A stretch of DNA of 64,000 nt from an uncultured virus (IMG/VR IMGVR_UViG_3300034378_000239) (IMGVR_UViG_3300034378_000239); one strand, 5' to 3'. Counted from the stretch's first letter, positions 16,591 to 41,543 are shown. Translations and numbers: made by a program. Notes: generated by a model from the letters alone, not told the origin.

Positions 16591-16718
16591 GGGCCCGGCG
16601 CGCGCTCGGGTGCGACCGCCTGGCCCCATCCTGGCCAACAACACGGGGCGAGGGCCTCGGCTGCCCGGGCGACGAGGAGGATGCGCCCTGGGTGGAACTT
16701 GAAACGCTGGAGGACTGA
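16497..16718 (+). CDS. hypothetical protein
   Basis: AAGGAG RBS; intact copy of the duplicated start. Confidence 0.55.
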   Translation: MTRTRYITRHYDEGTSPLSTARHTSERAARAWARRALGCDRLAPSWPTTRGEGLGCPGDEEDAPWVELETLED

Positions 16719-17008: not shown

Positions 17009-17215
17009 GGCACGAGCTCGCGGCCGCGTCCGACCTTTTGGAGGCTCCGGCGGGCTCGGTAGGAGAGAAGGAGGATGATGTTTTCAATCTTGGTGCTCAT
17101 ACCCCTACCTCCGGTGAACACCCCGAAGAGGCTCACGGGGCGCGCAAAAACCTCCTACATGTAGGTGGGGGCCTAATTTCATCTCGAAAAAGAGGAACCG
17201 GCCCGGTCCCACCCT
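16996..17215. repeat. 220-bp direct repeat copy 2
   Basis: Nearly identical to 15198-15417. Confidence 0.95.
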
Positions 17216-17235: not shown

Positions 17236-19677
17236 CTACCTTTGCGCCTTTTGCGTGGCCAAAACGACGGCCCCGAAAAGGTCGTCCGCGATCTCAGCCC
17301 ACGAGGGGGCCGCGGCGTCTGCGCATGCCGCCCTCATTTCGATCCGCAGGGCTTGGTCCTCGAAAAGCCTCGTCATCGCAGCCGAGAGGCGCTGGGCGCC
17401 ATCTGAAACGCCCGAAAGCCCGATAACGAGGCCGGTCCTTTCGTGCCGTACGAGCTCCTTGGGACCGCCCACGTCGCTCACGATGCAGGGAAGCCCCGAT
17501 GCCCTGGCCTCGAGCACGACGTTCCCGAACGTGTCTGTGAGCGAGGGGAACACGAACAGGTCGGCCGATGCGTAGGCCGTCTTGAGATCCTGGCCGCGCA
17601 AATAGCCCGTAAATACCACCTGGTGCCGTGCGTAACGTCTCCTCAGCGAGGCGAGCTCGGGCCCGTCCCCGACGATCGCGAGCTGGCTTTGCCTCGCGGC
17701 TTTCGAATTCGCTCTCGTGAGGACCCAGGCCTCCAGAAGCAGCCTTATGTTCTTTTCCGAGGAGATCCGCCCCACGTACAGAAACGTGAAGCACCTTCTT
17801 CCCCCATAACGGCGCCAAAACGAGGGATCCCGGTTGCCCGCACCGAAGCCCGGCCCGAGCCCTCGCCGGAGCACCGAGATCCTGTCTCTTTCGAGGCCGT
17901 GCTCGCAAAGCAGCTCGCGGTAGGCCGTGCTCGGCACCAGAACCCTGTCGCACCTGCCATAAAACCACTGCATCGCGTTCCAGGCCATGCGCTCGAAGCC
18001 CTCGTCCTTGGTCAGAGTCCCGACGTAGCGAGGGATGTCGGTGTGGTAGATCCCCACCGTGCGCAGGCGGAGAAGACGCGCGGCCAAAAGCCCCAAGAGA
18101 CCCATGGGCCCGGGCGTGGAGATGATGAGCTCGTCGAGCTTGGCCCGTTCGATGTATTCGAGCACCTCCAAAACCGGAGGGAAGCTGAGCTTCATCTCGG
18201 GGTACTCCGGGATCTCGAAAAGACCCACGGGAGCGAAGTTCTTGGCCCGGAAGGGCCCGCGCGGGTGGTCGGGAAGGCACGTCATCACCTGGACCCCGTA
18301 GCCGGCGCGAAAGGCCGCCTCGCTGACGTTCGCGATCGTGTGGGCGACGCCGTTTATGTCATTGAACGTGTCGGTAATCCAGCCGACCTGGTCCGAGCGC
18401 CGAAGGTGACCCGAGGCCCGCGGAAACCTCGCGACGACGTCCCGCAAAAAGGCGTCGTCCTTGTTCTGCGTGCGAAACGCGAACACATAGGGCGAGGTCG
18501 CGAGCAAAACCGGCACGACCGCGGAAAGGGCCTCGAAGCTCCGAAACAGATCGCCACGAAGGAATCTCCCGAGAGCGTTGCGCACGAACGTATGGCTGAG
18601 CCCGTGCGCCAGGCGGCAGCTCGTCCGAAACGTGTACGCCGAGTGGTCATCGGTGGGCTCGGCTTTCCGCTCGGTTTCGATGAGGTCGGAGACCTCGCGC
18701 ACGATCATCCTCTCGGTGCCGCTCAGCGCCTTTATCTTGCGCCTCACGAACCAGCTCCTCACTGCGCTCGCGATCCAGCTCCGCCTCTTCGGTTGGCGTG
18801 GCCTGAGGAGGCGCTCGAACACCCCCCGCATGAGCTTCGAATCGACGTCCTTTACGATTCGGGTCCTGTAGTAGTCGTACGCCACGTGATAAAACCCGTG
18901 CGCCAACCTGATCGAGCATCCCGCGGCCCCGGCCGCCTCGTGGCGCCCGTCTCGCAGAAAGCCGACATACTCCGAAGCGGTCCTCGCCCTGGGCGTCACG
19001 GTGTGTGCACAGGCGACGTAATGGCCGCTGTGGTCGTCGCTTCCCCCCGTGAAGAGCTTCTTTTGGGGGGTCGGCCCCCAAAACGAAAGGCCGTGACACT
19101 CGGCCATCCGCTCGATGTCGTGCGTCGTGAGCGAGGCGAGCACGATCCGAAGCGCATCGGCTTCGCGCATGCTTCTCGTGCCGTTTATGAGCTCGAACCG
19201 GTTGAACAAGACGAGCAGCTTCTCGAACTCGGCGACCGTCAGCCGGTCGCTCACGCGAAAAAACGGATGCGCGACGGTCGCGACGATGTCCTCGGTATGA
19301 AGGTAGTCGCGAAGCACGTAGATGTCCGCCCTCGTCGCCTCGATCCCCCGAAACTGCTCCTCGGTGATCCCGCTCGCCACGATGTGGACCTTGGCCTCGC
19401 TTTCGGGAAACATCGTGGTGATCTCGACGGAGATGAACGTGCGCGGAAGCGAGGCCAGCTTGAGGGCGCCCTCGATGCGGTCGTGGTCGGCAATCGTGAC
19501 GAAGTCCATCCCGGCGGCGCGCGCCTTGTCATAAAGTGCCCGCGGCTCGGTGAAGCACTCCGCGACTCCCACTCGCCTGAGCACCCACCCGGTCGGGTTG
19601 TCGGAGTAGCGACTGTGAACGTGCAGATCGGCCGCGGACCCCGAGGCCGTGCGAGCAGTGGGGCTCTTTGGGGGCAT
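17236..19677 (-). CDS. PHP-domain + GT4 (GT-B) glycosyltransferase fusion
   Basis: DLHVHSRYSD, TIADHD, GGSDDH (PHP); TDTF.DINGVA, YHTD, YVGRISSEKN, FVFPSLTDTFGNVVLEA.ASGLP (GT4). Confidence 0.93.
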   Translation of the reverse strand: MPPKSPTARTASGSAADLHVHSRYSDNPTGWVLRRVGVAECFTEPRALYDKARAAGMDFVTIADHDRIEGALKLASLPRTFISVEITTMFPESEAKVHIVASGITEEQFRGIEATRADIYVLRDYLHTEDIVATVAHPFFRVSDRLTVAEFEKLLVLFNRFELINGTRSMREADALRIVLASLTTHDIERMAECHGLSFWGPTPQKKLFTGGSDDHSGHYVACAHTVTPRARTASEYVGFLRDGRHEAAGAAGCSIRLAHGFYHVAYDYYRTRIVKDVDSKLMRGVFERLLRPRQPKRRSWIASAVRSWFVRRKIKALSGTERMIVREVSDLIETERKAEPTDDHSAYTFRTSCRLAHGLSHTFVRNALGRFLRGDLFRSFEALSAVVPVLLATSPYVFAFRTQNKDDAFLRDVVARFPRASGHLRRSDQVGWITDTFNDINGVAHTIANVSEAAFRAGYGVQVMTCLPDHPRGPFRAKNFAPVGLFEIPEYPEMKLSFPPVLEVLEYIERAKLDELIISTPGPMGLLGLLAARLLRLRTVGIYHTDIPRYVGTLTKDEGFERMAWNAMQWFYGRCDRVLVPSTAYRELLCEHGLERDRISVLRRGLGPGFGAGNRDPSFWRRYGGRRCFTFLYVGRISSEKNIRLLLEAWVLTRANSKAARQSQLAIVGDGPELASLRRRYARHQVVFTGYLRGQDLKTAYASADLFVFPSLTDTFGNVVLEARASGLPCIVSDVGGPKELVRHERTGLVIGLSGVSDGAQRLSAAMTRLFEDQALRIEMRAACADAAAPSWAEIADDLFGAVVLATQKAQR

Positions 19678-19748
19678 GCTGGCGGGGCTCGTTTCGTGAC
19701 GACGGGGCCTGTCCGCTTTGTTGCCATGGCGCCCCCTCGCTTTGTGCC

Positions 19749-20009
19749 TCATCGCGAGACATCATAGGGCCCGGCCCGCTTCCAATGAAGACCGGCCTCG
19801 TGCGCGCGAGCACCTTCGAGCGCAGCGCGCCACGTCGGCCCCCGGCCGAGAACCGACCACGAGTAGGGGTCGGCCCCACGCACCCCGACGTAGCGCACCA
19901 CGACCACGGCGTCCTCGGCCATGCCCCACGCGCGCTCCTCGAGCACGATCGCCCCGGGCCCGAACAGCTGGCGGGCCTCGGCTAAAGCCTCCTCCTGGGT
20001 GACTTCCAC
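19749..20009 (-). CDS. hypothetical protein
   Basis: Operon context. Confidence 0.45.
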   Translation of the reverse strand: MEVTQEEALAEARQLFGPGAIVLEERAWGMAEDAVVVVRYVGVRGADPYSWSVLGRGPTWRAALEGARAHEAGLHWKRAGPYDVSR

Positions 20010-20013: not shown

Positions 20014-20859
20014 CTACAGCCGCGCCAGCGCCCGTACCTTGGCCGGGTCCACCCGCACCGCCCGGGGCGTACTCTGCACTCTCTCCACCGGGTTTCGGCG
20101 CTTGCGACGCGCTGCCTTCTTCCGACGACGCTTGCGACGCGGGTTGTCCGGGGCCTCAGCGGCCGCTGGAGGCGGCGTGGGCCTCGGCGGGGCCTTGGCC
20201 CCAGCCGGTGCTCGCCGCTTCTGTGGGGCCGCAGGCGCAGCCTCGGCCGGGTTGCGACGGCGGCGGCGCTTGGTCCTCTTCTTGGTCGTCTTGCGCCGCT
20301 TGCGCCTGCGCGGGTTCTCCGCCTTTTCCGCCTTGGCCTTTGGCGCGGCCTCGGGCTCGGGGTTGACCTTTTTGCCCTTGGCCCGAGCAGTCCCGAGCGC
20401 TATGGCCGCCGCCCGGCTCGGGGCGATCCCCGCGGCCACGATCTTCTTTCCGCGCCGAAGCATCCAGCGATAGCTTCCCCGCATCTTGAACGTCGTCAAT
20501 TTGTACGCACCGATCGTCTTGGTCTGAGCCGCCGAGCTCTTCTTCGCACCCGAGCGCTTGGTGCGGCGCTTCGTGGTCTTTGTCTTCGTGACGCGCCTCT
20601 TCGTCTTCCGCTTTTTGGTCTTGCGCTTGGTCACGCGCTTTTTGGTCTTGCGCTTGCGCGCGCCCTTCTTCGCGGCCCGCGACCTGGCCGCCTTCTTGCG
20701 CGCCCTGGTCCGCGCGGCCTTCTTGCCCGCAGCGACCCGCTTCGCGCTCTTTCTCTTGGTCTTCCGCTTTGCGGTCTTCCGCTTCTTTGCGCGCCGCTTC
20801 TTTCTCGGATTGTAGGCGGCCATTCTGTAGCTCCCTTTCTTCTTCTTCGTGACTGCCAT
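20014..20859 (-). CDS. histone/protamine-like basic protein with six NP motifs (putative virion core DNA-binding protein)
   Basis: K/R/A/T-rich, KRKTKKR repeats; YNP, VNP, ENP, RNP, DNP, RNP; ends KVRALARL. Confidence 0.8.
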   Translation of the reverse strand: MAVTKKKKGSYRMAAYNPRKKRRAKKRKTAKRKTKRKSAKRVAAGKKAARTRARKKAARSRAAKKGARKRKTKKRVTKRKTKKRKTKRRVTKTKTTKRRTKRSGAKKSSAAQTKTIGAYKLTTFKMRGSYRWMLRRGKKIVAAGIAPSRAAAIALGTARAKGKKVNPEPEAAPKAKAEKAENPRRRKRRKTTKKRTKRRRRRNPAEAAPAAPQKRRAPAGAKAPPRPTPPPAAAEAPDNPRRKRRRKKAARRKRRNPVERVQSTPRAVRVDPAKVRALARL

Positions 20860-21477: not shown

Positions 21478-22377
21478 TCAGTCTCCGCACAGGCAGTCGC
21501 CCTCACCGACGTCGAGGACTTCCGCTGGAAAGAGGTCGAGCTGGCGGCGGAGCAGATCCGCACGCGTGAGCAAGGACGACACCGGCTGGTCCTTTCGGAA
21601 GGTCGCGCCGATCTTCGTCTCCTGCTCGATCCACCACGTCGCGAGCTCGGGGTGCGCGGTGATGATCTGCAGCCTCTTCTTTACGCCCTTCAGAAAACAG
21701 AGGTCGCAGTTGCTCTCGTATGGCTTGAGCCGAAGATCGAACGGGCTGCAGCGCCAGTACGCCATCACGTCGTCCTCGCAGACCCCGGCATCCACGAGGG
21801 GAAACTGGTACCACCACCGCTCGTTGCCCTCGCCACGTTGCAGCCTGACCATGCGGTGAACCTCGTCAGCGCGAACACCGATGACCATGCCCCAGTGCTC
21901 GTAGCCGCGAGCCCGCATCCACTTCTTGATCGGTCGGATCTTGAGCTCGGTGGTGCAAAACCGCGTGACGGGATTCGGAACGTAGCCACGGTCCTCGATG
22001 AGCTTTGCGAAGCCCCCGGGCCTTTCGACCCAGTGCACCGGGACGTTCCATTGCTTCGCGCAATCGCGCACGAAGTCGTAAGTCTCCTCGCGCTCCTTGT
22101 GCGTGTCCGCAAACAAGACGTGCACGTCCTTCGGCAGCTCGCCATCGTACTCATCCTTCTTGTCGGTGACGCGCCAGATCTTCCATCCGTACGACGTCCC
22201 GCCGTAGACCCACATCGTCTTTTTGCGCTTCTTCGCGTAGTACCCCGCGGAGATCACGGCACCGCTGAAGTCGCCCTCGCTCTTCGCCCGCAGCTTCATC
22301 GCGCGCAGCGAGCTGGTCGCCGCCCGGTCAACCCGGGGCGGTCCCAAAACGATCGTCTGCGGGTTCTTCTTCGGCAT
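21478..22377 (-). CDS. PAPS-reductase-family protein with a chimeric KKNP-type N-terminus
   Basis: VHVLFADTHKEREETYDFV, PNPVTRFCTTELKIRP, IGVRADE..R, SNCDLCFLK; canonical SGG PP-loop absent. Confidence 0.85.
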   Translation of the reverse strand: MPKKNPQTIVLGPPRVDRAATSSLRAMKLRAKSEGDFSGAVISAGYYAKKRKKTMWVYGGTSYGWKIWRVTDKKDEYDGELPKDVHVLFADTHKEREETYDFVRDCAKQWNVPVHWVERPGGFAKLIEDRGYVPNPVTRFCTTELKIRPIKKWMRARGYEHWGMVIGVRADEVHRMVRLQRGEGNERWWYQFPLVDAGVCEDDVMAYWRCSPFDLRLKPYESNCDLCFLKGVKKRLQIITAHPELATWWIEQETKIGATFRKDQPVSSLLTRADLLRRQLDLFPAEVLDVGEGDCLCGD

Positions 22378-22392
22378 GGATCGGTTCGCTAT

Positions 22393-23094
22393 CTATCCGC
22401 GACCGCGCCGACGGGCGATTTGGGGCACCCGCCGCGGAGGTACGATCGGCGGAGGAACTCTGGGAGGCTCCATCGGCCGGGGAGCACCCGGCGGCGGGAT
22501 CGGCACGGGGCGCCTGCCCCCAGGTGGCCTCGGAGGCTCCATCGGCCGGGGACCCGCGGGCACGGCCGGAACGCACCCGATGAACCGACCGCGAGCGTCA
22601 CGCGCGGCGCGTGTGCCCGGTGGACAAAGGACCGGAGGCCGCGGCTCATCACTTGGCGGCGTGGGACGCGGCACACCCGGAGGCCTGGGAGCTCCCTTGC
22701 AACCGAGGAAGTTGCCGGCCCAGTCGTAAAGCGGCCTCGTCCCGGGCGGGCAGAGCCTCTGCGCCGCCCCGACGCGGAGCCGAGCGCCCCCGCGACCCAA
22801 GGCGCGCGTTCGTCCACGTACCCGGGCGCCCCCGCTGGGCGTTTTGGGCCTTCGGCCCTCCCCCATGTTGTATCGGACGCATCGCATCATGGCGGTGGCG
22901 TCCTTTGGGTCGCCCATACAAACCTGCTTTCCGGTATCGGGATCGAGGGCGCACGCCCCACCACAGAGTTCGCAAGCTTCGCAGAAGGTCGTTGCCGTCG
23001 GAACCTGTCCGCTCCGCGCGCGCTGGAGTGCCGCGCCGATGCCGTAGCGGTCCCGGCAGTTGGGGTTGTAGTTTCTGCTTCCCATGCTGTACAT
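22393..23094 (-). CDS. Cys/Pro-rich protein with RDRYGIGAALQR motif
   Basis: AAGGAG RBS; N-terminus paralogous to 23541-23777; LCPPGTR x2 and RPMEPPR x2. Confidence 0.7.
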   Translation of the reverse strand: MYSMGSRNYNPNCRDRYGIGAALQRARSGQVPTATTFCEACELCGGACALDPDTGKQVCMGDPKDATAMMRCVRYNMGEGRRPKTPSGGARVRGRTRALGRGGARLRVGAAQRLCPPGTRPLYDWAGNFLGCKGAPRPPGVPRPTPPSDEPRPPVLCPPGTRAARDARGRFIGCVPAVPAGPRPMEPPRPPGGRRPVPIPPPGAPRPMEPPRVPPPIVPPRRVPQIARRRGRG

Positions 23095-23114
23095 GATGAC
23101 TCCTTTTACTGGTT

Positions 23115-23486
23115 TCAGAGTACCTCGAAGGTCCAGTACGTCGGCGCGGTCCCGGCCTTCGTGTAATGAAGCACGACCTCGTAAAACCCCTGCCTGAGGA
23201 AGCGAAGCTCGACGATGCCGGCCTTCGAATCGATGGCGATCTCGTAGTCGGTGCCCTCTTCGGCCGCGCCGCGCTTTTCCTCGCTCACCTGGACGCTTGT
23301 CGGCTTCGGATGCTGGGGCGCGAGGTAGACCTCCTTTTCGCGCCTGGCATCGTACGCCCCGGGCGCGAACGCGCTTTCGGCCGGCGGCGGCAAGGTCGGC
23401 TCGCCGGTCTCCTTCTTTCGGGTCGCCACGTAGGCGATCACGCCTCCGAGCACCATCGCGACGACCAATCCTGCTTGTGCGGCCAT
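23115..23486 (-). CDS. N-terminally membrane-anchored beta-rich protein
   Basis: Hydrophobic N-terminus followed by RKKE; AAGGA RBS. Confidence 0.7.
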   Translation of the reverse strand: MAAQAGLVVAMVLGGVIAYVATRKKETGEPTLPPPAESAFAPGAYDARREKEVYLAPQHPKPTSVQVSEEKRGAAEEGTDYEIAIDSKAGIVELRFLRQGFYEVVLHYTKAGTAPTYWTFEVL

Positions 23487-23540
23487 GTTCGTTGTTCCTT
23501 TCTCGGGATCGGTTCGCTACCTTCGCGGGACTCCATCCAT

Positions 23541-23777
23541 TCAGGGCATGATCACCCGCTGGCGCACGTACCTGCAGTTGTCGTAGCACTCCTGCCACTC
23601 GGGAAAGCCCCAGTGCGGGTACAGCCGGGACATGTTGTGGCACCATGCGGCGCAGCCGCCCTTCGTGCGACCGGCCGGCGCTTGAGGAGCTCGGGCCCGC
23701 GCGCGCTGAAGCGCCGCGCCTATGCCGTAGCGGTCCCGGCAGTTCGGACGGTAGGTTCTTGAGCCGATCGCGTACAT
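23541..23777 (-). CDS. small Cys-rich protein with RDRYGIGAALQR motif
   Basis: TGATG-coupled to the upstream tagged gene. Confidence 0.7.
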   Translation of the reverse strand: MYAIGSRTYRPNCRDRYGIGAALQRARARAPQAPAGRTKGGCAAWCHNMSRLYPHWGFPEWQECYDNCRYVRQRVIMP

Positions 23778-24259
23778 CACACCCTCGTGAGCTTGCTGAG
23801 CTTCTTGAGGTCGCCTCCAGCCGGATTTCGCCTGGCCCGGCGGCGACGTCTCGGTGGGTTCTCGAAAGCACGGTGCCCCCGATGCCGCAGGTTCATGACC
23901 GTGTGCATCGTCGTGCTCCGCTCGGCAAACGGCCGCCAATACTCCGCCTCGATCCATACGGAATCCGCCAGATTCTTCCGAATGAGCTCCTTTGCCGCCT
24001 TTATCGCGCCGGGCAGATCGAGGCCGAAGTCCTGGTAGTCGCCGAGCCACTCGTTTTCCTTGGCCGCATGAAGGAGAAGCCTCACCGAAAGCGCCCTGAT
24101 CCCCTTCTCGGTCTGCGCAGCCTTCTTGAGCTGCGCCCACGACACGGGTTTCCACGCATCCTTGTCGCTGCGATGAAGCTCGAAGTCACGGCGGCTGCCG
24201 ACTTCCTTCCGCTCATCGTGGTGGATGACTACGGGGTCCTCTTTCTTCTTTCTCGCCAT
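23777..24259 (-). CDS. LSKLTRV-tagged cargo protein
   Basis: Starts MARKKK; ends RRNPAGGDLKKLSKLTRV. Confidence 0.8.
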   Translation of the reverse strand: MARKKKEDPVVIHHDERKEVGSRRDFELHRSDKDAWKPVSWAQLKKAAQTEKGIRALSVRLLLHAAKENEWLGDYQDFGLDLPGAIKAAKELIRKNLADSVWIEAEYWRPFAERSTTMHTVMNLRHRGHRAFENPPRRRRRARRNPAGGDLKKLSKLTRV

Positions 24260-24287
24260 CTGGGATCGCTCTTTTGCCTTTTCGACT

Positions 24288-24617
24288 TCAGTCGCCGATG
24301 TGATCGGCGATCATCTCCTTGACCATGGCCTCGCAGGCCTTGCCCGTGGTCCCGTACGCGCCGTAGTGGCCATGGCCCTCGTGGTCCTTGAAATGCCCGC
24401 GCCAGCGGTAGGTGTTCGACTCCTCCATGGACATGTGCGAGCCGTCAGGACGCCGGAGCCCGGGAAGCACCTCGTTTGGACCGCTGTAGTAGCACCAGTA
24501 CGGAAAGCCGCGGTAGCCGCCCTCGATGCCGGCCCACTTCTTCCCGAACGAGAACTTAGAGGCCGCAAACAGCATGATGCCGCCCAAGATCACGAGAGGT
24601 AGCATGGGAGTCGCCAT
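24288..24617 (-). CDS. N-terminally membrane-anchored protein (untagged)
   Basis: Hydrophobic N-terminus; TGATG coupling. Confidence 0.7.
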   Translation of the reverse strand: MATPMLPLVILGGIMLFAASKFSFGKKWAGIEGGYRGFPYWCYYSGPNEVLPGLRRPDGSHMSMEESNTYRWRGHFKDHEGHGHYGAYGTTGKACEAMVKEMIADHIGD

Positions 24618-25270
24618 CACACCCTCGTGAGCTTCGTGAGCGCCCGAAGCCGGGACGGGTTTTCGGCCGGGCGCCGCCGGCCGCGCTCGCGCTTGGGCGC
24701 GCCCTCAGGGCGCCTCTTGACCTGCTTGCCGACCCAGATGAGCGCCTTGCCCTTGGTCTTGAAAGTCTTCTGTCGCTCATCGCCGTCCTCGTCTTCCCAG
24801 GTCACCCGGAACTTCGAAGGCTTGCAGGATCGGATCTCCTCAATCCTGTAACCAGCGATCTCCTCCTCCTCGAAAACCTCGGTTTCGGCCCGAGCGCCAA
24901 GGAGGAAGTTCGGCTTCGGGCCCTTGGGGTTCCCCCTCCCCGTCGCCCAGATGTAGTTCGACAGGATCCTCGAGCCGTACTTCCGCGCGCGCACGTGCTT
25001 ACGGGGCACCACGTTCCCCGCCTTGGTCTTTACGAGCTCGCCCTTCTTGTAGGGCCCCCGCGGCGCCGTGACCTTGACCTCCAAGTGACCCTCGCGCTCG
25101 GGCGACCCGGCCTGGACCCAGCCGTAGCCCCCCGTGATCACCCGAACGACCTTCACCGGCACCAGACCGGAAAACGTGTCCAGGTACGCCAGCGCGCCCG
25201 CGTAGTAGGTCTTCGCCGCCGCCACCCGCTGGCCATGCGTGAGCTCGAACGTGGGGTTTCTCTTCGCCAT
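24617..25270 (-). CDS. LTKLTRV-tagged cargo protein (two NP-delimited modules)
   Basis: MAKRNP...GRGNP...AENPSRLRALTKLTRV. Confidence 0.8.
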   Translation of the reverse strand: MAKRNPTFELTHGQRVAAAKTYYAGALAYLDTFSGLVPVKVVRVITGGYGWVQAGSPEREGHLEVKVTAPRGPYKKGELVKTKAGNVVPRKHVRARKYGSRILSNYIWATGRGNPKGPKPNFLLGARAETEVFEEEEIAGYRIEEIRSCKPSKFRVTWEDEDGDERQKTFKTKGKALIWVGKQVKRRPEGAPKRERGRRRPAENPSRLRALTKLTRV

Positions 25271-25635
25271 CACATCCTCGTCAGCTTGCTGAGCGCCCGA
25301 GAGCGGTCGGGAGCCGGGTTGAGGGTGGGGTTCTTCCGAGGGGCCAGGTCGAAGTCCTTGTTCTTCTTCGAACCTGTCGCCTGGGCAATGTTGGCCGCAA
25401 TCTCCATGGCCGTGATGACCCCACCGTACTTCCGACCCATCCAATCGTACCCATCACGAAGGATCCGATGCTCGCCGAATTCCTTGGGCTTCGTCACCGT
25501 GTAGGTGATGCCCCTGTGCTTGGCGACCATCCCCTTCGCCTTTTTGTACTTGAACCTGAGGGTCAACGTCCCGTCGGACGACTTCGCATCGTAGTCGTCC
25601 GGCACGTAGTACACCGGGTTGCGTTTGCGTGCCAT
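25270..25635 (-). CDS. LSKLTRM-tagged cargo protein
   Basis: MARKRNP...RKNPTLNPAPDRSRALSKLTRM. Confidence 0.8.
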   Translation of the reverse strand: MARKRNPVYYVPDDYDAKSSDGTLTLRFKYKKAKGMVAKHRGITYTVTKPKEFGEHRILRDGYDWMGRKYGGVITAMEIAANIAQATGSKKNKDFDLAPRKNPTLNPAPDRSRALSKLTRM

Positions 25636-26399
25636 CACACCCTCGTGAGCTTGCTGAGGCTCTTCAGCCGGCCGGGGTTCTTCTTGGGGTCCCGTTTCGC
25701 AGGGGGAGCGATCCTTTTGCTGGGGTTCTTCCGCTTCTGGCTGTCCCGAATGACCTTCTGCCGGAAGAGCTTGGCCTCGCGTACCGCCTCCGCGCGGGTG
25801 CGACCGCTCGGCCCCCACACAAACGGCTTGGGAAACGGCTTGCCAGCCTCGTCCAGAAACCTCGTCGAATATGAGCCACCGCGCGTGTAGGTGACCTCGA
25901 TCATATACGGCCTCGGGATCAGCTTCGTGGCCTTGGCCCGATGCAGGGTCGTTCCCTTTCCGTCGTCCGGGAACGGCCGCTTGCGCCCCCAACCGACCGG
26001 CGGCCTTCTCGCTGTGTTCCGTTTCATGGTCTTGCCCCTCTTCGGGTTCGAGCGAAGGCTCGAGCTGAGGTCGCTGATCAGTGAGCCGATCACGGCCTTC
26101 ATCGATGACTTGCGCACCATCGCGTAGATGTATCCGTCCACCTTCGCATTCCCGGAGGCCTCATTCTCCGCGCCGTAGAGCACCACGTAGATCTCGCGAG
26201 ACTCCCTCCCCTTGCGCTTCAGGTCACCCACGAACCAAAGCCCGTAATCCCACTGCCGGGGCATCGTCGCGTGGACCTCCCGCACGGTGAAGGTCCCCAC
26301 ACGCGTAAGCCCCTTCTTGAACATGCTGACGACCTTGGCTGGCTTGTATTCGGCCGGCAGGTACACCGCCAGCCGATCTTGTGGTTTGCGTCTTGCCAT
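25635..26399 (-). CDS. LSKLTRV-tagged cargo protein (two modules)
   Basis: MARRKP...RSNP...RKNP...KKNPGRLKSLSKLTRV. Confidence 0.8.
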   Translation of the reverse strand: MARRKPQDRLAVYLPAEYKPAKVVSMFKKGLTRVGTFTVREVHATMPRQWDYGLWFVGDLKRKGRESREIYVVLYGAENEASGNAKVDGYIYAMVRKSSMKAVIGSLISDLSSSLRSNPKRGKTMKRNTARRPPVGWGRKRPFPDDGKGTTLHRAKATKLIPRPYMIEVTYTRGGSYSTRFLDEAGKPFPKPFVWGPSGRTRAEAVREAKLFRQKVIRDSQKRKNPSKRIAPPAKRDPKKNPGRLKSLSKLTRV

Positions 26400-27019
26400 C
26401 ACACCCTCGTGAGCTTGCTGAGTGCCCGGAGCCGCCCCTTGTCGGGGTTCCTCTTGGGGGCCTTGGTCTTGGTCTCGGGGTTGCGGGAGCGGCCCGACTT
26501 TCCACCCGGAGCGATCCCTGGGTTCTCCCGCTCCACGAGCTGCTGGCCGAGCTTCCTCTGGTCGATGGCAAGAGCCGTGCGGCGTCCCTTGGCGGTCAAG
26601 CCGTAGCCCCATGCCGAGCGCTTCAAAAGGCCTCTCTTCGTAAGTTTCCTCGCCTCCCACTTGCCCGGGTCCACCTGTCCGTGCTTGAGGGCAAGCACGA
26701 GCACGTGCTTCTCGTCCAGCGTCAACCTCGTCGCGACCGTCTTCGGGTTGCGTTTGCTACGGGAAGCGATCTTCTTGCGGCGCGCCTTTCTCGAAGCGAG
26801 CTCGCCGCGGAGCCGCTTGAGCGTCTTCTCGATGTCCTTGATCTCCGAGCGGTGAAGTGCCTTCGCAACACGACCATCGGCCTTCTTGAGCATCGCCTTC
26901 TCATCGCGAAGCGCCTTTGCGTGGATCTTGACGAGTTCCTTCAGATCTTCATCTGAAGGACGAAGACCCAGGGTTGCGCGCCAACTCAGGTTCTTCTTGG
27001 GGTCTCGTTTTCGTGCCAT
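26399..27019 (-). CDS. LSKLTRV-tagged cargo protein (coiled coil + winged-helix-like module)
   Basis: KRNP..LTKRGLL....YGLTAKG..ENP..RNP..KRNPDKGRLRALSKLTRV. Confidence 0.8.
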   Translation of the reverse strand: MARKRDPKKNLSWRATLGLRPSDEDLKELVKIHAKALRDEKAMLKKADGRVAKALHRSEIKDIEKTLKRLRGELASRKARRKKIASRSKRNPKTVATRLTLDEKHVLVLALKHGQVDPGKWEARKLTKRGLLKRSAWGYGLTAKGRRTALAIDQRKLGQQLVERENPGIAPGGKSGRSRNPETKTKAPKRNPDKGRLRALSKLTRV

Positions 27020-27308
27020 CACACCCTCGTCAGCTTGCTGAGACTCCGCAGCCGGTCTGCGGCCGGGTTCTTCTTGGGTTTGGACGAGTCCCGTTTGGTG
27101 GGGGCCCAGTATTCGATGCCGCCCTCGGGGCCGTGAACATACGTCCCGGGGCTGAGCGGAACCGTCGGGCTAGGCAGCCCCTTGGGCATGCCGCATCCAT
27201 GGCCGCGGGCACGCACGTACGCTTGACGCGAATGGTCTTGCCGCCGCGCCGATAGGTGTAGCCCTTGCGCGTGTACGCCTTTCTCCTGACCGTGATCTTC
27301 CGTGCCAT
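27019..27308 (-). pseudogene. frame-split chimeric tagged gene
   Basis: MARKITVRRKAYTRKGY... frame differs from the frame carrying MPKGLP...KKNPAADRLRSLSKLTRV; the break lies near the edge of a 92-bp duplication. Confidence 0.65.
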
Positions 27309-27752
27309 GGGTGTTTCCCTAGATCTTCGAGAGCTCGCGGAGCCCTCTGCCTACGGGGTTGCGCCTCGGCGACGTCTTCCGTGCATGTGCCGCTCGCGGC
27401 TTCTTCGGGTTTTTCTTCTTTCCGATCCCGGCCGCCTTGGCTGCCCTGGGCAGCTCGAACATGTACCCCTTCGCCGCAAGATTCCGGATCCCGTTTAGGC
27501 GCTTTAGGATCTGAGAGCGCTGGGCGTAGAGCTTCCTCACGCTCGGGATCTTCGCGTCCGTCCCGAGCCACCAGTCGCTGAACTTCTCGTAGAAGTCCTC
27601 GGCGCTCTCGAGGTACGCCTGCGCGAGATTGATGGCTTCGGACGCACCCCAGAGCATGTCGGCCCAGTATTCGATGCCGTCCTCGGGGCCGTGAACATAC
27701 GTCCCGGGGCTGAGCGGAACCGTCGGGCCAGGCAGCCCCTTGGGCATGCCGC
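27103..27752. repeat. 92-bp direct repeat (27103-27194 and 27661-27752)
   Basis: Encodes GMPKGLP(S/G)PTVPLSPGTYVHGPE(G/D)GIEYWA in both genes. Confidence 0.92.
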
Positions 27753-27786
27753 CCTCCAAGTTCTTCTTCGGAGTCTTTTTTCGCAT
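27319..27786 (-). CDS. cargo protein with variant tag (RRNPVGRGLRELSKI)
   Basis: GAGGAG RBS; KKNP and RRNP motifs. Confidence 0.75.
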   Translation of the reverse strand: MRKKTPKKNLEGGMPKGLPGPTVPLSPGTYVHGPEDGIEYWADMLWGASEAINLAQAYLESAEDFYEKFSDWWLGTDAKIPSVRKLYAQRSQILKRLNGIRNLAAKGYMFELPRAAKAAGIGKKKNPKKPRAAHARKTSPRRNPVGRGLRELSKI

Positions 27787-27790
27787 CGTT

Positions 27791-28240
27791 TCACTCCTCG
27801 TCCCCGATGCCCGCGAGCTCGGCCACGCGGCGCTCGCTTTGGATCTGCTCATCGGACTTCTTGTCGGCCTCCTTGGCCTCGCGCAGCCAGCTCGGCGGCG
27901 CGGGCGGCTTGGGCGGCTCGGGCGGCTTGGGCGGCTCCCCGGCGAAGACGTTGACGGAAAGTGGACCGGCGAACGGGTTGGGTTGGCCGGGCACACCGAA
28001 GAGCGCCTGCATGGCCTGCTGCGCGGGGTTTTCCTTGGCCGCCTTGCGTTCCTTTTCCTCCTCCTTGTCCTTTTCCTTCATCTCGCGGTACTTGTCCACG
28101 GCCATCGCTCCGACGATCGCTCCGGCCGCTGCAGTCGCCGCGAACTTGGCGAAATCGAGCAGATGATTCTTCTTCTTGGTTCCGCCCTGGACGTCGTCAT
28201 CGCCCGACTGGCCGATCCGGCCTCCTTTTCCTCTGGCCAT
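27791..28240 (-). CDS. putative membrane-associated protein
   Basis: TAATG coupling; AATAAAGAIVGAMAV segment; Pro-rich tail. Confidence 0.65.
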   Translation of the reverse strand: MARGKGGRIGQSGDDDVQGGTKKKNHLLDFAKFAATAAAGAIVGAMAVDKYREMKEKDKEEEKERKAAKENPAQQAMQALFGVPGQPNPFAGPLSVNVFAGEPPKPPEPPKPPAPPSWLREAKEADKKSDEQIQSERRVAELAGIGDEE

Positions 28241-28638
28241 TACTTCTTCCTCCGCATTCTCCGCGTCTTTCGCTTGGCCCTCCGCTGCGCCCTCCGAACA
28301 CGCCCGCGCTGGAACCTCGCAAAGCTCTCGAGGTCGCCGACGAGCGCGCAGCCCTCCTCCTCGAGCTTCTTCCTCAGCCGCTCGACGGACTTTTTGGCCA
28401 GACGCTTGCCCTCGGTTTTGAGCCACTTGACCGCGAGCTTCCAGCGATTGATCCGAAAGGCGAGCCAACGTCTTCGCGCCCGCGACCGGGCCCTCTTGAA
28501 TCGGGCCTCGAACACGTCTATGCGCCCCTCCATGTAGTGAACGAGCTTGGTCCTGCCGTATTCGAGGTACCGCACCAGGACCCATCTTCCGATCGCCTTG
28601 GCGATCCGAACGAGCATCTCACGCTGACCGGTAGTCAT
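28240..28638 (-). CDS. basic helical hypothetical protein
   Basis: Operon context; GAGGG RBS. Confidence 0.6.
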   Translation of the reverse strand: MTTGQREMLVRIAKAIGRWVLVRYLEYGRTKLVHYMEGRIDVFEARFKRARSRARRRWLAFRINRWKLAVKWLKTEGKRLAKKSVERLRKKLEEEGCALVGDLESFARFQRGRVRRAQRRAKRKTRRMRRKK

Positions 28639-28648
28639 CTTTTTACCC

Positions 28649-29179
28649 TCATTCCTTTGCGCTTCCCACGCGAGCGCTGTCCCGAACGGTCCTCACGCGA
28701 TCCTCGGCCTCATCGAGAGCCTCGGGCCGATCTTCGGGCTTGACCCTGAGCTTCTTGGCGACCCGCTCGAGCAGATGCCGGTCGTAGCGGTCGCCCTCGA
28801 GCATGTACACGGCCAGGTCGGCGTCGTTTTGGCGCAGCAGCATGTGCACGTCGTCATTTTCGTGGCGGTCGACCGCGGCCTTGGCCTCGACCTGTCTCAT
28901 CCTCTCGTCGGTCCGCTCGATCACGGGGTCGATGTACTGGCCGACCTGTTTCTGGAAGTAGCCCTGTCCGGCGAACGAGAGCACCGCGAAGATCGCCATC
29001 ATCGCGGTCACGAACATCGTCGGATTGCGCTCGACCCAGACCTTCTTCTTGCCGTTTTCGGCGGCAATCACGGTCGTGAGCGCATGCACCGCCCGGACCA
29101 CCGACTCCGTCGACCCGAAATCCTCTCCCGGCGCGGGAAACTGGGGCTTTGCGGCGGGCTCCTCTTTCTTCGGTGGCAT
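28649..29179 (-). CDS. single-TM protein with coiled coil (lysis-accessory candidate)
   Basis: MFVTAMMAIFAVLSFAG TM segment; near the putative lysin. Confidence 0.6.
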   Translation of the reverse strand: MPPKKEEPAAKPQFPAPGEDFGSTESVVRAVHALTTVIAAENGKKKVWVERNPTMFVTAMMAIFAVLSFAGQGYFQKQVGQYIDPVIERTDERMRQVEAKAAVDRHENDDVHMLLRQNDADLAVYMLEGDRYDRHLLERVAKKLRVKPEDRPEALDEAEDRVRTVRDSARVGSAKE

Positions 29180-29201
29180 GGGCTCTCCTTCCGATCTCCA
29201 A

Positions 29202-29405
29202 TCAATGCGTTCTCGGAACCAGCGGCACGCTTTCGGGGTCGCGCGAGCTGTGCACGAGGCGGTCTATGGCCTCGAGCGTGGTTTTCAGACCCTTCAGGTG
29301 CGCTTCGGTCTCGTCGAGCTCCGAGACCACGGCCGCGCGCAGCTCGGCGAGGCGGTCCTCTAGCTCCTGAAGATCTTCGTTGTAGCGGCGTAGTGAGGTG
29401 CGCAT
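29202..29405 (-). CDS. small coiled-coil protein
   Basis: Heptad pattern; AAGG RBS. Confidence 0.5.
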   Translation of the reverse strand: MRTSLRRYNEDLQELEDRLAELRAAVVSELDETEAHLKGLKTTLEAIDRLVHSSRDPESVPLVPRTH

Positions 29406-29412
29406 GACCTTT

Positions 29413-30213
29413 CTAGATCCTGCCGTCTGCCTGAAGTGTCGCGCGAAGCACGGCGGCGAAGCCCGGGTAGCGTCGGACGCTCACGCCGCGCAGATGAAGC
29501 TTTTGATCCACCCCGAACCCCTTGGTCTCGCGGATCGCCTCCATGAAACGCTCGTGGATCGCCTTGCGCGTCGGATTCGATAGCGGCTTTTTGGCCAGCG
29601 TGTGGGTGTTCATGCCGGCGCGAGCGCGAGCCCAGTTGACGGCGCCCCACTTGGTGCGCAGCCGGTAGACGAGATCGGCCGTGAACGCGGCAGCGAACGG
29701 GACATCGAACACCCGGGCCGGATCCATGTCGCGCCCGACCTTGTCGTGGGTCGAAAGCGCGGTCACGGGCATGAGCCCCTGCGGGCCACCGGTGTACGCC
29801 CAACGCTTCGAGAGCCGCGAGCCCTCGCACGGCTCGGGACGCCAGGGGTTATCCAAAAAGCGGGTCTCGTAGTTGACCTTGTAGTCGCAAAGAAGACCGA
29901 GGGCCCGTTTCGCCTCCCGCGGGTCATCGTTGATCGCACCGGGGATCCCCCGGCTCTCGGTGTGGGCCGCGGCTATGAGAAAGTCACGAAGGCCCGGGAT
30001 CCGGGCGGCGCGCTCGGCCGCCTCGGCCGAGCGGATGATCCTCTGCCACTCCTCGTCGATCGAAAGCGGCGGAAACGAGGCCGCCCGAAAGACCTCCTCG
30101 GGCAGATCCCCAGGACGTGCGCCGCCCTCGTCCTCCGGTCCGAACAGGGTCTTGCGAGCACCGAGTACGAGCGTTCCTGCGAGGGCGAAGGCGGGCACTA
30201 CCCAGGGGGCCAA
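29413..30213 (-). CDS. lytic transglycosylase/lysozyme-like protein with N-terminal membrane anchor
   Basis: IAAAHTESRG..GA and GGPQGLMPVTA resemble SLT motifs I and II. Confidence 0.7.
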   Translation of the reverse strand: MAPWVVPAFALAGTLVLGARKTLFGPEDEGGARPGDLPEEVFRAASFPPLSIDEEWQRIIRSAEAAERAARIPGLRDFLIAAAHTESRGIPGAINDDPREAKRALGLLCDYKVNYETRFLDNPWRPEPCEGSRLSKRWAYTGGPQGLMPVTALSTHDKVGRDMDPARVFDVPFAAAFTADLVYRLRTKWGAVNWARARAGMNTHTLAKKPLSNPTRKAIHERFMEAIRETKGFGVDQKLHLRGVSVRRYPGFAAVLRATLQADGRI

Positions 30214-30216
30214 AGC

Positions 30217-30585
30217 TCACTCCTCCTTTTTTTCCTCCGACTCGGTCGCCTCCGTGGTGATCGAGCTGTCCTTCTTCTTGCCCGACCGCGAGAGCTTGCG
30301 GAAGACGCTGAAGACCTCGGTCGCGGCCGTGGCCAGCGCGCGATCGGAGAGGTTCTCGATGAACCCGCCGACGCCGCCGTCCGCACCATCCTCGTCCGCG
30401 TCGGCGTCGACCTCGGCATTGGCACCAGCCGGCTCGCTTTCGGCCTCCTCGAGAAACGAAAGCGCGGCCCTGCCCACGGCGAGCGCGGTCTGGTCAGCGG
30501 TCTCGCTCTTCGCGATCACGCGGATCTTGGCCTTTCGCTTGACGACGTAGCCGCCGTCCTCCGCCTTTTGCAATTCGAGCTTCAT
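30217..30585 (-). CDS. hypothetical protein
   Basis: AAGGA RBS; operon context. Confidence 0.55.
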   Translation of the reverse strand: MKLELQKAEDGGYVVKRKAKIRVIAKSETADQTALAVGRAALSFLEEAESEPAGANAEVDADADEDGADGGVGGFIENLSDRALATAATEVFSVFRKLSRSGKKKDSSITTEATESEEKKEE

Positions 30586-30654
30586 GTGGGGGATCGTCCT
30601 TTCTGGTACCTCTTTCGATTGAGTGTGTGTACCGCCCCCACAGTAGCAGATCCC

Positions 30655-31362
30655 CTAATCGGCCGCATGAAGGGCCGCAAACGTCAGCCCGGCAACCGCC
30701 AGCACCGCGACGCCGAAGATCCCGGCGGTGCCCGCCGTCTTGAACATATCCTTGGTGTTTTCGACCATCTCATCGGCGCTCTCGGCGACCTCCTCGCGAA
30801 GCGTGGGCAACTCGCCCGGCGCCGACTTCCCGAACGCCTCCTGTTTGGCGACCATGAGAAACTCGGCGAGACGATTCCACGGCATGATGTCCCGCCACCA
30901 GGCCCAAAGCTCCCGATAGTATTCGAGGGCCGCGACGAACTGATTTCGGACCATCGCGACCTGGGTCACGTCGGACCGCGTGATCACCCAGCCGTCCGCC
31001 CTTTTCGTCCACGTGGGCTCGAAAAGCGGCTCGGGGAAGTCGGGGTCGAACCGCCCGTAAAGGAGCGGGTCGAGCACGAAGCGCTTTACGTCCTCGGGCG
31101 GGTCGTTTATGTGGCGAAAGTAGAAGAGCAAGCGCGAATTGAATCGCGAAAGCTCCTTCATCGGGCCGACGAGGTGCCTCGTCTGCGACGTCGCGATCGT
31201 ATCGTCGATCTTGAGCCGGACCTTGGCGGCCTCGTTCCACATTCCGTGCGTGCAGTAGAGCACGTACCAAAGCGCGGTCATGGACGGGAACTTCTCGTAG
31301 ATCCCACGCAGGATGTTTGTCCACATGACCACGTTTACAGGCGCGAAGCTCCGGTCTGCCAT
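30655..31362 (-). CDS. C-terminally membrane-anchored protein
   Basis: GGAGGAG RBS; ends AGIFGVAVLAVAGLTFAAL. Confidence 0.65.
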   Translation of the reverse strand: MADRSFAPVNVVMWTNILRGIYEKFPSMTALWYVLYCTHGMWNEAAKVRLKIDDTIATSQTRHLVGPMKELSRFNSRLLFYFRHINDPPEDVKRFVLDPLLYGRFDPDFPEPLFEPTWTKRADGWVITRSDVTQVAMVRNQFVAALEYYRELWAWWRDIMPWNRLAEFLMVAKQEAFGKSAPGELPTLREEVAESADEMVENTKDMFKTAGTAGIFGVAVLAVAGLTFAALHAAD

Positions 31363-31399: not shown

Positions 31400-32326
31400 C
31401 TAGCCGTGGCGTGCGAGGTAGTCCGAGTAGGTGAGGCCGAGGCCCTCGTCGAGCGAGACCTCGGGTACCCAGCCGAGCGCGCGCATGCGCGTCGAGTCGG
31501 TGACCTTGCGCGGCGTGCCATCGAGCTCGCCTGAAAAGCCGATCTCTCCGTCAAAACCCGTCAAATTCGCCACTTTTGCCGCGAGGTCGGAGATGCTCAG
31601 CTCGTCGCCCGAGCCGACGTTCACCGGACCGAGGCGGCTATAGCGCTCCATGGCGAGCACACATGCCAAGGCGACGTCATCGACGTAGGTGAGCTCCCGG
31701 AGCGCGGCGCCGGTGCCCCAAAGCGTCACGCGGCCGCGGCCCTTCTTTCGTGCATGATGGAACCTGCGAATGAGCGCAGGGATCACGTGCGAGCTCTCGG
31801 CATCGTAGGTGTCGCCCGGACCGTAGAGATTCGAGGGCTGGACCGAGATGAAGTTCGCACCGTGCTGGCGGCGATACGCATCACAGAGCTCGATGGCCGC
31901 AATCTTCGCGATCGCGTACGCGCGATTCGTGTCCTCGAGCGGCCCGGATAGAAGCGCCTCCTCTTTCATGGGCTGGTCGCAAAGCCGCGGGTAAATGCAC
32001 GAGCTCCCGAGCATGAGGAGCTTCTTGGTCCCGAAGAGGTGCGCGCACTCGATGACGTTCGAGGCGATCTGGAGGTTTTTGTGCAGGAACTCGGCCGGGC
32101 GCGTCTTGTTCGCGAGGATCCCCCCGACCACGCCAGCGGCCACGAAGACCAGGGCGGGCCTCTCCTCGTCGAACCATTCCATGGTCTGGTGCTGGTCGGT
32201 GAGGTCGAGCGCGGCGTGGCCCCTCCCGATGATGTCTTTGTACCCGAGCTCGCGCAGCTTGCGACAGATCGCAGAGCCGACCATGCCGGTATGGCCAGCG
32301 ACGTAGACCTTGACATCACGATCCAT
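31400..32326 (-). CDS. fcl: GDP-L-fucose synthase
   Basis: VAGHTGMVGSAI, VGGILAN, LGSSCIYP, YAIAK, NLYGPGD, SHVIPALI, WGTG..LRE. Confidence 0.95.
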   Translation of the reverse strand: MDRDVKVYVAGHTGMVGSAICRKLRELGYKDIIGRGHAALDLTDQHQTMEWFDEERPALVFVAAGVVGGILANKTRPAEFLHKNLQIASNVIECAHLFGTKKLLMLGSSCIYPRLCDQPMKEEALLSGPLEDTNRAYAIAKIAAIELCDAYRRQHGANFISVQPSNLYGPGDTYDAESSHVIPALIRRFHHARKKGRGRVTLWGTGAALRELTYVDDVALACVLAMERYSRLGPVNVGSGDELSISDLAAKVANLTGFDGEIGFSGELDGTPRKVTDSTRMRALGWVPEVSLDEGLGLTYSDYLARHG

Positions 32327-32557
32327 TCCGGGCTCCTTTCCTTGGGTCCTTGCCGAGCCCCACCCGGACGACGGCCTCGCCCACTCTTCGCACGAGTTCG
32401 TCGCGTGGCATCCCGCGTTCGCTCCAACCAAGCACGATTCGTTCGTTCGCCGTGAGCCCCGGTGGCGGAAAGACCGTGACGTAAAGGGCGCCCTCTTCCT
32501 CGATCGCCCATACGTGGACCGGATACGGACAAAGCCCGTCGGGAACGAGGGCGGCCC

Positions 32558-33589: not shown

Positions 33590-33609
33590 GGTACACTCCG
33601 CAAAGCCTC

Positions 33610-40903: not shown

Positions 40904-40919
40904 CGCTGGCTTTTGCGCC

Positions 40920-41540: not shown

Positions 41541-41543
41541 GGG

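Follow-up and report, generated by a model that had tools for sequence, protein, structure and literature searches.

A shared C-terminal tail at the gene junctions of a mosaic array of small basic genes in an uncultured virus

What holds together a row of small, strongly basic genes that share little except their ends? The question is raised by a 64,000-nucleotide stretch (hereafter the window) of the uncultured virus IMGVR_UViG_3300034378_000239, an element of 76,985 bp (~77 kb) and ~65% G+C (62-70% in the window), in which a 26-bp sequence recurs on the minus strand at the borders between successive genes. The best explanation overall, to which we give a probability of about 55%, is that these genes form a translationally coupled, hyperplastic array whose members carry one selected tail, are shuffled by general recombination and would use the tail as a common tag.

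The initial annotation described the repeat as a single piece encoding the end of a protein tag, a Shine-Dalgarno (SD)-like element, a stop codon and the next start, and this description stands. Six minus-strand copies lie at 23775, 24615, 25268, 25633, 26397 and 27017 (spacings of 840, 653, 365, 764 and 620 bp); of these, three match exactly, while one departs at a single position and two at two positions, and no chance match to the 26-mer arose in 100 dinucleotide shuffles. An overlapping TGATG stop/start is found in all six, every ATG opens the next open reading frame (ORF), and the last codons, ACG AGG GTG TGA TG, combine tail end, SD, stop and start. The SD-like element GAGG(G/A) is GAGGG in five copies and GAGGA in one, its GAGG being five bases before the ATG of the next gene. 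The encoded peptide, given as LSKLTRV throughout, is so in four of the six array copies, the others reading LTKLTRV (24615) and LSKLTRM (25268). A degenerate copy is present at the border between genes g2 and g3 (..GLRELSKI*, stop at 27319-27321). The junctions, with genes numbered g0 to g10 in the direction of transcription and g3 split into frames g3a and g3b, are as follows:

27017-27042, minus strand: junction g3b/g4; one mismatch, CTG in place of CTC; the g3a frame ends in its CTGA as well
26397-26422, minus strand: junction g4/g5; exact
25633-25658, minus strand: junction g5/g6; exact
25268-25293, minus strand: junction g6/g7; two mismatches; LSKLTRM; SD GAGGA
24615-24640, minus strand: junction g7/g8; two mismatches; LTKLTRV
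23775-23800, minus strand: junction g9/g10; exact
16731-16789, plus strand: seventh junction, dispersed and inverted; ..PKKNLGRLRSLSKLTRV, TGA, C, ATG (MAGKRRKK..)

The seventh copy came from a six-frame peptide search; its coding part ends at 16782 and is followed by TGA (16783-16785), one C and the ATG at 16787. As a separate observation, the CTG-for-CTC variants at 27017-27042 and 25268-25293 create a TGA in the second frame (..GCTGAC..), which at the g3/g4 junction is the g3a stop.

The genes that these junctions join form a leftward string of small ORFs with mostly unrelated bodies, and the tagged proteins have pI values of 10-11.4. Coordinates give the coding span without stop codons, and P0007 and P0012 are tailed proteins from other contigs that are described below:

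28243-28638, minus strand: g0, 132 amino acids (aa), 34% Lys+Arg; untagged, upstream in the same leftward string
27794-28240, minus strand: g1, 149 aa, MARGKGG..; untagged; coupled to g0 by TAATG
27322-27786, minus strand: g2, 155 aa; two KKNP-type motifs; short tail variant ..RRNPVGRGLRELSKI
27022-27308, minus strand: g3, chimaeric, frame-broken cassette; head MARKITVRRKAY.. in the g3a frame
26402-27019, minus strand: g4, 206 aa; head MARKRDPKKN; coiled-coil-like module (residues 3-92), extra module, tail
25638-26399, minus strand: g5, 254 aa; extended tail RIAPPAKRDPKKNPGRLKSLSKLTRV, common to P0007 and P0012
25273-25635, minus strand: g6, 121 aa; head MARKRNP; tail ..NPAPDRSRALSKLTRM
24620-25270, minus strand: g7, 217 aa; module X fused to module Y, then tail
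24291-24617, minus strand: g8, 109 aa; N-terminal hydrophobic helix (by eye); without tail; start from a junction copy
23780-24259, minus strand: g9, 160 aa; head MARKKKEDP; without upstream junction; tail RRNPAGGDLKKLSKLTRV
23544-23777, minus strand: g10, 78 aa, Cys-rich; without tail; start from a junction copy

Judging by its codons, the junction goes beyond a DNA repeat, being primarily the end of a selected protein tail of 17-40 aa with the consensus (K/R)(K/R)NP-x(2-4)-RLRxLSKLTRV. First, conservation extends beyond the 26-mer, for ~45 nt upstream (PKKNP..RLRxL) and ~20 nt downstream (MA[RK][RK].NP). Second, over the 15 pairs of array copies, comparison of the four codons that precede the core shows 16 identities, 15 synonymous and 29 non-synonymous differences, many of the last being conservative yet multi-base (CGG/AAG, GCA/AGC/AGT). 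Third, the core of the seventh copy reads CTG TCC AAG CTA ACG AGG GTG, as against CTC AGC AAG CTC ACG AGG GTG for the exact array core, which makes three synonymous and no non-synonymous codon differences and includes a switch of serine codon family from AGC to TCC; synonymous-only differences of this sort point to purifying selection on the peptide. The seven codons of the core hardly vary between array copies (identical in 87 of 105 comparisons), and arginine is encoded by AGG in six of six tails as against 17% of Arg codons in 12 window genes. This fixation of the last eight codons at the DNA level comes from their second role: they hold the GAGG site, the TGA stop and the overlapping ATG of the next gene. 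SD and restart account for ACG AGG GTG TGA TG and less well for the fixed CTC AGC AAG, which may reflect homogenisation by recombination.

These same data bear on a purely translational explanation resembling that of start-associated sequences, in which the RNA (an A-rich tract, GAGG and the TGATG restart) is selected and the peptide is a passenger. The frozen synonymous sites of the core and the rare AGG in all six tails fit it well, two junctions persist behind frame-broken bodies, and there is a precedent in cluster K mycobacteriophages, where a 13-bp repeat a few bp ahead of many starts has an SD core and may include the upstream stop (PMC3203893). We nevertheless regard it as unlikely, because conservation reaches 11-17 codons upstream through synonymous and conservative multi-base replacements, the dispersed copy differs synonymously only, even across serine codon families, g2 and its orthologue P0015 keep GLRELSKI, an ending without GAGG, and tail subtypes of 20-27 aa are common to several contigs. 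At the RNA level, the consensus fold of the seven junctions has an energy of -1.56 kcal/mol with none of six predicted pairs covarying, and Rfam had no match anywhere in the window.

The second line of evidence for the selected tail is its presence on foreign proteins. A profile of eight tails retrieved nine proteins at E<=1e-3 from 1.84 billion representatives (six own and three foreign), and a profile of 11 tails retrieved 16 at E<=1 from a set of 5.8 billion proteins, at lengths of 15-273 aa (seven own and nine foreign); among proteins of 274-2000 aa, no tail was seen in the 8000 candidates scored, a weak negative. An assembly artefact was considered and dropped, the tail being found on proteins from other contigs. 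The foreign proteins are from contigs of 6394 bp (P0007, P0009, P0011 and P0013), 1994 bp (P0008, P0012 and P0014), 3124 bp (P0015) and 1692 bp (P0016), and those with equal reported contig size are likely to share one contig. P0009 is a GNAT acetyltransferase (PF00583, 40.3 bits vs a cut-off of 20.7, E 4.3e-10). P0007 matched no Pfam family, and weak leads connect it to the ADP-ribosyltransferase (ART) fold (RNA 2'-phosphotransferase chains at E 0.2-0.25; an Arr-family cluster with a feature score of 0.93).

The bodies of these proteins, compared with those of the array, are mosaic. Residues 4-116 of g7 (module X) are 72% identical to residues 22-132 of P0008, in which the tail follows directly after X, and residues 109-217 of g7 (module Y) are 69% identical to residues 92-197 of P0011, which has another N-terminal half (Z). 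Thus, g7 is X+Y, P0008 is X+tail and P0011 is Z+Y+tail, with GRGNPKGPKPN at the X/Y joint in g7 and SDKKNP at the corresponding joint in P0011. Similarly, residues 3-92 of g4 are 46% identical to residues 81-179 of P0014: g4 consists of the coiled-coil-like module (CC) and an extra module before the tail, while P0014 has its extra part (W) in front of CC. To the eye, the joint in P0014, ..KSNPRIASRRKQDPKPNKLSWRALFG, begins like an extended tail (NPRIAPPAKRDPKKNP..) and passes straight into a g4-type head (MARKRDPKKNLSWRA). Three subtypes of the tail can be told apart, and they are distributed across unrelated bodies: RIAPPAKRDPKKNPGRL[KR]SLSKLTRV in g5, P0007 and P0012; RRNPAGGDLKKLSKLTR[VI] in g9, P0013 and P0016, the last two having bodies unrelated to that of g9; and NPSRLR[AK]L[TS]KLTRV in g7, P0011 and P0009. 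In an all-against-all BLASTP comparison, the mosaic pairs were g7/P0008, g7/P0011, g4/P0014, g5/P0007, g5/P0012 and g9/P0013, and outside them little beyond the tails aligned. Orthologous bodies are 70-84% identical (g2/P0015 84%, with the same ending kept in P0015; P0013/P0016 81%). From these sequences we conclude that whole bodies, domains and tail subtypes are found in differing combinations among related elements, apparently with borders at KKNP linkers and tails. Fixed gene content and order, the outcome that the initial annotation had set against its own proposal of cassettes moving between junctions, is the opposite of what was seen, since the nine foreign tailed proteins have other bodies and domain combinations. 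Mosaicism and variable content in relatives agree with that proposal; its confinement of the borders to the 26-mer is not borne out, for those inferred from the proteins also fall at the KKNP linkers flanking the junction and inside genes, where domains are joined or divided.

Divergence might be thought to suffice, in that an ordinary paralogous family could arise by tandem duplication, its bodies diverging with no shuffling and the tail surviving as the slowest-evolving remnant. The tandem arrangement, similar sizes, common head and tail, uniformly basic character and a weak g4/g5 similarity are all in its favour. Yet P0009 is a GNAT and no other tailed protein in the same Pfam scan matches GNAT; the combinations X+Y, X alone, Z+Y, CC+extra and W+CC cannot come from divergence alone; and tail subtypes of 20-27 aa are identical on unrelated bodies, against 70-84% identity for orthologous bodies. 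Such a history is therefore improbable, more so than the translational explanation. Relatives were also sought at the nucleotide level. Junction patterns, exact and degenerate, in viral, genome and metagenome contig collections gave six loci, all of them chance matches in DNA that was AT-rich or unrelated; as even the contig of the window itself is missing from those collections, they do not contain the lineage. Searches of viral contigs with the primase-helicase, P0013 and P0015 found no relatives, and blastn of 23500-28700 against phages found no match.

Module borders lie at KKNP linkers, and the same linkers flank the junction in the same codon phase. A six-frame search of the whole window for the motif [KR][KR]NP gives 15 occurrences, 11 of them in the array. 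A 22-mer, AAACG[GA]GACCCCAAGAAGAACC, is common to the region before the g5 tail and the head of g4:

26989-27010, minus strand: 22-mer AAACGAGACCCCAAGAAGAACC, g4 head
25676-25697, minus strand: 22-mer AAACGGGACCCCAAGAAGAACC, g5 pre-tail (KRDPKKN)

A 13-mer, CCCAAGAAGAACC, has six sites with at most one mismatch, two of which, in the g3b pre-tail (27066-27078) and the g4 head (26989-27001), bracket the g3/g4 junction in the same codon phase. The longest tract of junction homology is 55 nt at 85%, in an inverted pair with the copy at 16.7 kb. RecA has a lower limit near ~25 bp, and phage single-strand annealing proteins work on such lengths.

What look like scars are found at two junctions. In g3, G+C content at third codon positions (GC3) is highest in the MARKITV.. 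frame down to ~27235 and in the g3b frame from ~27220, with the switch near 27225; g3b (P0003, 56 aa) repeats g2 residues 14-42 at 93% identity and then ends in the tail, and a 120-nt duplication (88% identical) was recorded for g3. At the 16.7-kb copy, tail and upstream gene (MTRTRY.., 16497-16718) are in different frames, and GC3 switches to that of the tail near 16650, ~70 nt ahead of the stop in the upstream frame. The g3 chimaera and the 120-nt duplication are consistent with scars of recombination, as read from the sequence. The frame breaks at g3 and the 16.7-kb copy could be due to sequencing error, decay after recombination or recoding; programmed +1 frameshifting was dropped, its sole sign at the two sites being the GC3 frame switch.

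The mechanism that we prefer would then run as follows. The array would consist of translationally coupled small basic proteins made of interchangeable modules with Lys/Arg-Asn-Pro linkers between them, most proteins starting with MA(R/K)(R/K)xNP and ending in the one selected tail. The DNA of head, linker and tail (13-26 nt identical, up to ~55 nt at 85%) would serve as the homology tract for the general recombination machinery of host or phage, with no dedicated recombinase. A crossover in the core would move whole genes while keeping tail, coupling and both reading frames. If the PKKN of a pre-tail crossed over with that of the next head, the stop-restart core would be lost and the two genes joined in one frame; run backwards, the step would divide a gene with two domains into two genes, each tagged. 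The occurrence of fused and unfused forms of the same proteins fits the PKKN crossover, a step that we infer.

An integron-like array was among the forms suggested by the initial annotation, which tied no recombinase to the repeat. In a dedicated cassette system of this kind, a tyrosine recombinase would act on the junction. Direct repeats between promoterless genes would suit it, and two tyrosine recombinases are indeed present in the window (1991-2749, minus strand; 12083-13198, plus strand). However, both are 10-25 kb away and far below integron cut-offs: the ORF at 1991-2749 scores 58.3 bits with TIGR02249 (cut-off 265) and 43 with NF011946 (cut-off 435), and the ORF at 12083-13198 has no integron-integrase match. 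The junction has no conserved inverted repeat or hairpin, none within it being present in the repeat listing of the window, and it lies within coding sequence that is constrained as protein, while borders inferred from proteins fall at internal linkers as well. A consensus scan for promoters of the sigma-70-like type found 0 in 22000-31000 (shuffle mean 1.0), and no terminator-like site was found at any junction on the minus strand. With no integron integrase, attC-like hairpin or sigma-70-like promoter found, this suggestion is unsupported and very improbable, and general recombination is retained as the preferred mechanism.

What the tail does is the part of the preferred explanation with less support. 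Our best guess, by analogy with the internal proteins of phage T4, is a common docking or targeting tag, which would address one partner, preferably for delivery or packaging of small effector-like proteins. AlphaFold2, run on the last 45 aa of g5 with the 11-tail alignment, predicts (mean pLDDT 67) a coil and then a short helix, PGRLKSLS, right after NP. The same architecture could also serve another job, the tail acting as a C-terminal degron, as an anchor to membrane or DNA, or as a ligand of a PDZ-like pocket. T-R-V, T-R-M and S-K-I fit [ST]-x-[VMI]-COOH in all window tails, including the g2 variant; a very basic, probably disordered linker is predicted before the tail; and several neighbouring genes look by eye like small membrane proteins. 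The tail may bear comparison with the ClpX tag of MuA, which is likewise basic and C-terminal, and with the membrane helices of MinD and FtsA. Helical amphipathicity not above that of shuffles speaks against such a job, as does the ending of P0013, ..LTRIP, which departs from [ST]-x-hydrophobic-COOH. Although these alternatives jointly have slightly more to recommend them than a purely translational signal, they too are doubtful, and docking or targeting remains our preference.

A bolder version of the tag, which as one joint claim we consider speculative and about as unlikely as the translational signal, would make the head (MA-R/K-R/K-x-NP) and the tail removable handles on plug-in effector domains. 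All domains would be carried by the tail to a single place, such as the particle or some other shared receptor, and the basic-NP linkers would be processing or boundary sites, so that a domain would work alike alone or fused. The PKKN codons recur in phase in the pre-tail and the next head, which would let recombination remove or insert the stop-restart core of 60-80 nt, and the locus would thereby switch between a polyprotein and separate tagged genes. In the limited library of literature that was searched, no description of coding junction tags or of gene-splitting linkers was found.

Several points weigh against the array-and-tag explanation. First, SD and restart alone can explain the frozen synonymous core sites, without gene conversion. 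Second, two of the eight tails, those of g3 and the 16.7-kb copy, stand behind frame-broken bodies; the junction can thus persist without a working tagged protein, which favours a role at the nucleotide level. Third, four of the nine foreign proteins have E values of 0.023-0.67 and were accepted on visible tails and pairwise homology, and equal size is the sole basis for placing proteins on one contig. Fourth, the bodies are not all unrelated, since g4 and g5 match weakly outside the tail (37% over 93 aa, E 8.5e-6). Fifth, the module borders were read from proteins alone. Finally, for the tag itself, an amphipathic-helix tail found no support, the hydrophobic moment being no higher than in shuffles (0.17-0.43 of shuffles reach it in five of six tails); the tail has no known partner; and among the genes of the window, none for capsid, portal, terminase or protease was recognised with Pfam, PHROGs or NCBIfam, which is why a role in the virion is proposed by analogy only.

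The locus is a gene-shuffling hot spot of a kind known in other phages, the closest cases being the promoter-early stem-loop (PeSL) cassettes of T4-type phages, the start-associated sequences (SAS) of cluster K mycobacteriophages and the peptide of the T4 internal proteins. In the PeSL study (Arbiol et al. 2010, PMC2839356), crossovers between neighbouring PeSL copies delete, insert or replace ORFans with no dedicated recombinase, rare mini-circles (about 1 in 10^5) are shown, and the authors liken PeSLs to integrons; the mechanism preferred for the array resembles this one, which has experimental support. Like the junction, the PeSL is a short conserved unit lying between ORFans of a hyperplastic region, with the SD and start codon of the following gene at its end. 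Unlike the junction, it is intergenic, with a sigma-70-like promoter and a terminator stem-loop, whereas the junction is coding, has neither as far as our scans go, and couples genes by TGATG; and the PeSL mini-circles are experimental, whereas the array is known from sequence alone. The SAS/ESAS elements (Pope et al. 2011, PMC3203893) include a 13-bp sequence, GGGATAGGAGCCC, placed 3-7 bp before the start codon. They resemble the junction as asymmetric short repeats before starts, with an SD core and sometimes an upstream stop, in a non-structural region of a high-G+C phage genome and before varied gene families. The consensus GGGATAGGAGCCC is nevertheless unlike the junction sequence, only position and SD content being alike, and SAS are not described there as a shared peptide, whereas junction conservation extends 11-17 codons into the upstream gene in a protein-like manner.

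The T4 internal proteins are the model for the tag. According to PMC3012670, they are diverse, basic and fast-evolving, share only a short terminal capsid-targeting peptide, which takes them to a single destination, and include members that counter host defences. In the sequences that we inspected, MKTYQEFIAEA is present on ipII and ipIII. The targeting peptide is removed by the prohead protease. A terminal peptide common to otherwise diverse small basic proteins is the likeness; the difference is that the T4 peptide is N-terminal, whereas that of the array is C-terminal and doubles as the start region of the next gene. A similar layout is seen in T4 e.5, e.4 and e.3, which have FV-x-[ED]-[CS]-R near their ends, e.3 starting inside the e.4 tail (e.2 as annotated is without the motif). 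These too are neighbouring small accessory genes with unlike bodies, a common ending and the next start in or after it, but with another motif and in another phage group. Integron cassettes share with the array the one-way promoterless genes and the repeated site between them, and differ in having IntI, an attC hairpin and Pc/attI, none of which is found here, where the site is coding. Lastly, polyvalent proteins (Iyer et al. 2017, PMC5512222) are large polypeptides of 2-15 domains, GNATs and ARTs among them, that are thought to be delivered early. Like the array, they variably combine small disparate domains in invasive elements; the difference is that they are single large polypeptides, while the array units are mostly separate tailed genes, some of them fused.

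As to the individual array genes, no significant match to Pfam, PHROGs or NCBIfam was obtained for any of them. The extra module of g4 appears winged-helix-like by eye. The body of g5 has no homologue except g5 itself among the 5.8 billion proteins; in the Atlas it had no usable feature match, and none of its structure rows reached TM 0.5 by query, so that the nucleotidyltransferase-like ones among them are a lead at most. An AlphaFold2 model of g7 without an alignment was unusable (mean pLDDT 35.3). The first 81 nt of g10 recur at 23014-23094 (80% identical), and a Cys-/Pro-rich ORF (22396-23100, minus strand) has a g10-like start, MY.(I/M)GSR.Y.PNCRDRYGIGAALQRAR, and repeated LCPPGTR.. and PRPMEPPR units.

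Three more [KR][KR]NP motifs are located just downstream of the array on the same strand, one at the N-terminus of a PAPS-reductase-like protein (21481-22377, minus strand; phrog_424, E 2.8e-44), which begins MPKKNP like an array head, and two in the following protein:

20017-20859, minus strand: 281-aa hyperbasic protein, 41% Lys+Arg; two [KR][KR]NP and further -NP- in basic context (by eye); ending ..DPAKVRALARL

This 281-aa protein is possibly a distant member with the same style of head, linker and tail. It has internal periodic repeats of 12-27 nt, is histone- or protamine-like in composition and matches no family.

Around the seventh junction, two direct repeats of 220 nt (15198-15417 and 16996-17215, 98% identical) enclose a 1.6-kb segment with an ORF (15702-16295), two MTRTRY.. 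mini-genes, the junction itself and the MAGKRRKK gene. The palindrome CCTCCTACATGTAGGTGG lies within each repeat, as does the beginning of a small minus-strand ORF, and from the sequence the pair looks like a duplication or the single-crossover insertion of a circle. Within the segment, 16296-16403 and 16495-16599 are a tandem duplication (91-97% identical) of a small-gene start, MTRTRYITRH.., the copies encoding 45 and 73 aa.

The remainder of the window suggests, as an inference, a phage-like element. Its genes include, besides the two generic tyrosine recombinases and the PAPS-reductase-like gene, DUF5131 (Gp37/Gp68), a helix-turn-helix protein and a primase-polymerase/helicase; the DUF5131 and primase genes have their best matches in phages, and there is a RusA-like PHROG match. 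A region of ~14 kb (31403-45838) holds sugar-nucleotide and glycosylation genes (GDP-mannose 4,6-dehydratase, epimerases, a DegT aminotransferase, GNAT, methyltransferases and GT2/GT1-like transferases). An 804-aa protein (46920-49331, minus strand) made mostly of Gly/Ala/Thr/Ser-rich repeats, with a non-repetitive C-terminal part, appears tail-fibre-like by eye and has no Pfam or PHROG match. An 838-aa protein (17239-19752, minus strand) has GT4 domains in its C-terminal half, a match to PF20706 ('GT4 in conflict systems') and, on inspection, a PHP-like histidinol-phosphatase motif (HVHSRYSD) in its N-terminus.

If the array-and-tag explanation is true, a single piece of sequence would act as address tag, ribosome hand-over and homology for gene swapping, which would give a mobile element a simple way to keep changing the set of small proteins that it expresses and addresses. 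The tailed ORFans of this phage group, including a GNAT and a possible ART-like protein, would then probably share a destination or partner, and the tail of 11-17 residues could be used as bait for that partner or as a tag for foreign cargo. Shared end tags may even be a general, under-described feature of phage accessory regions.

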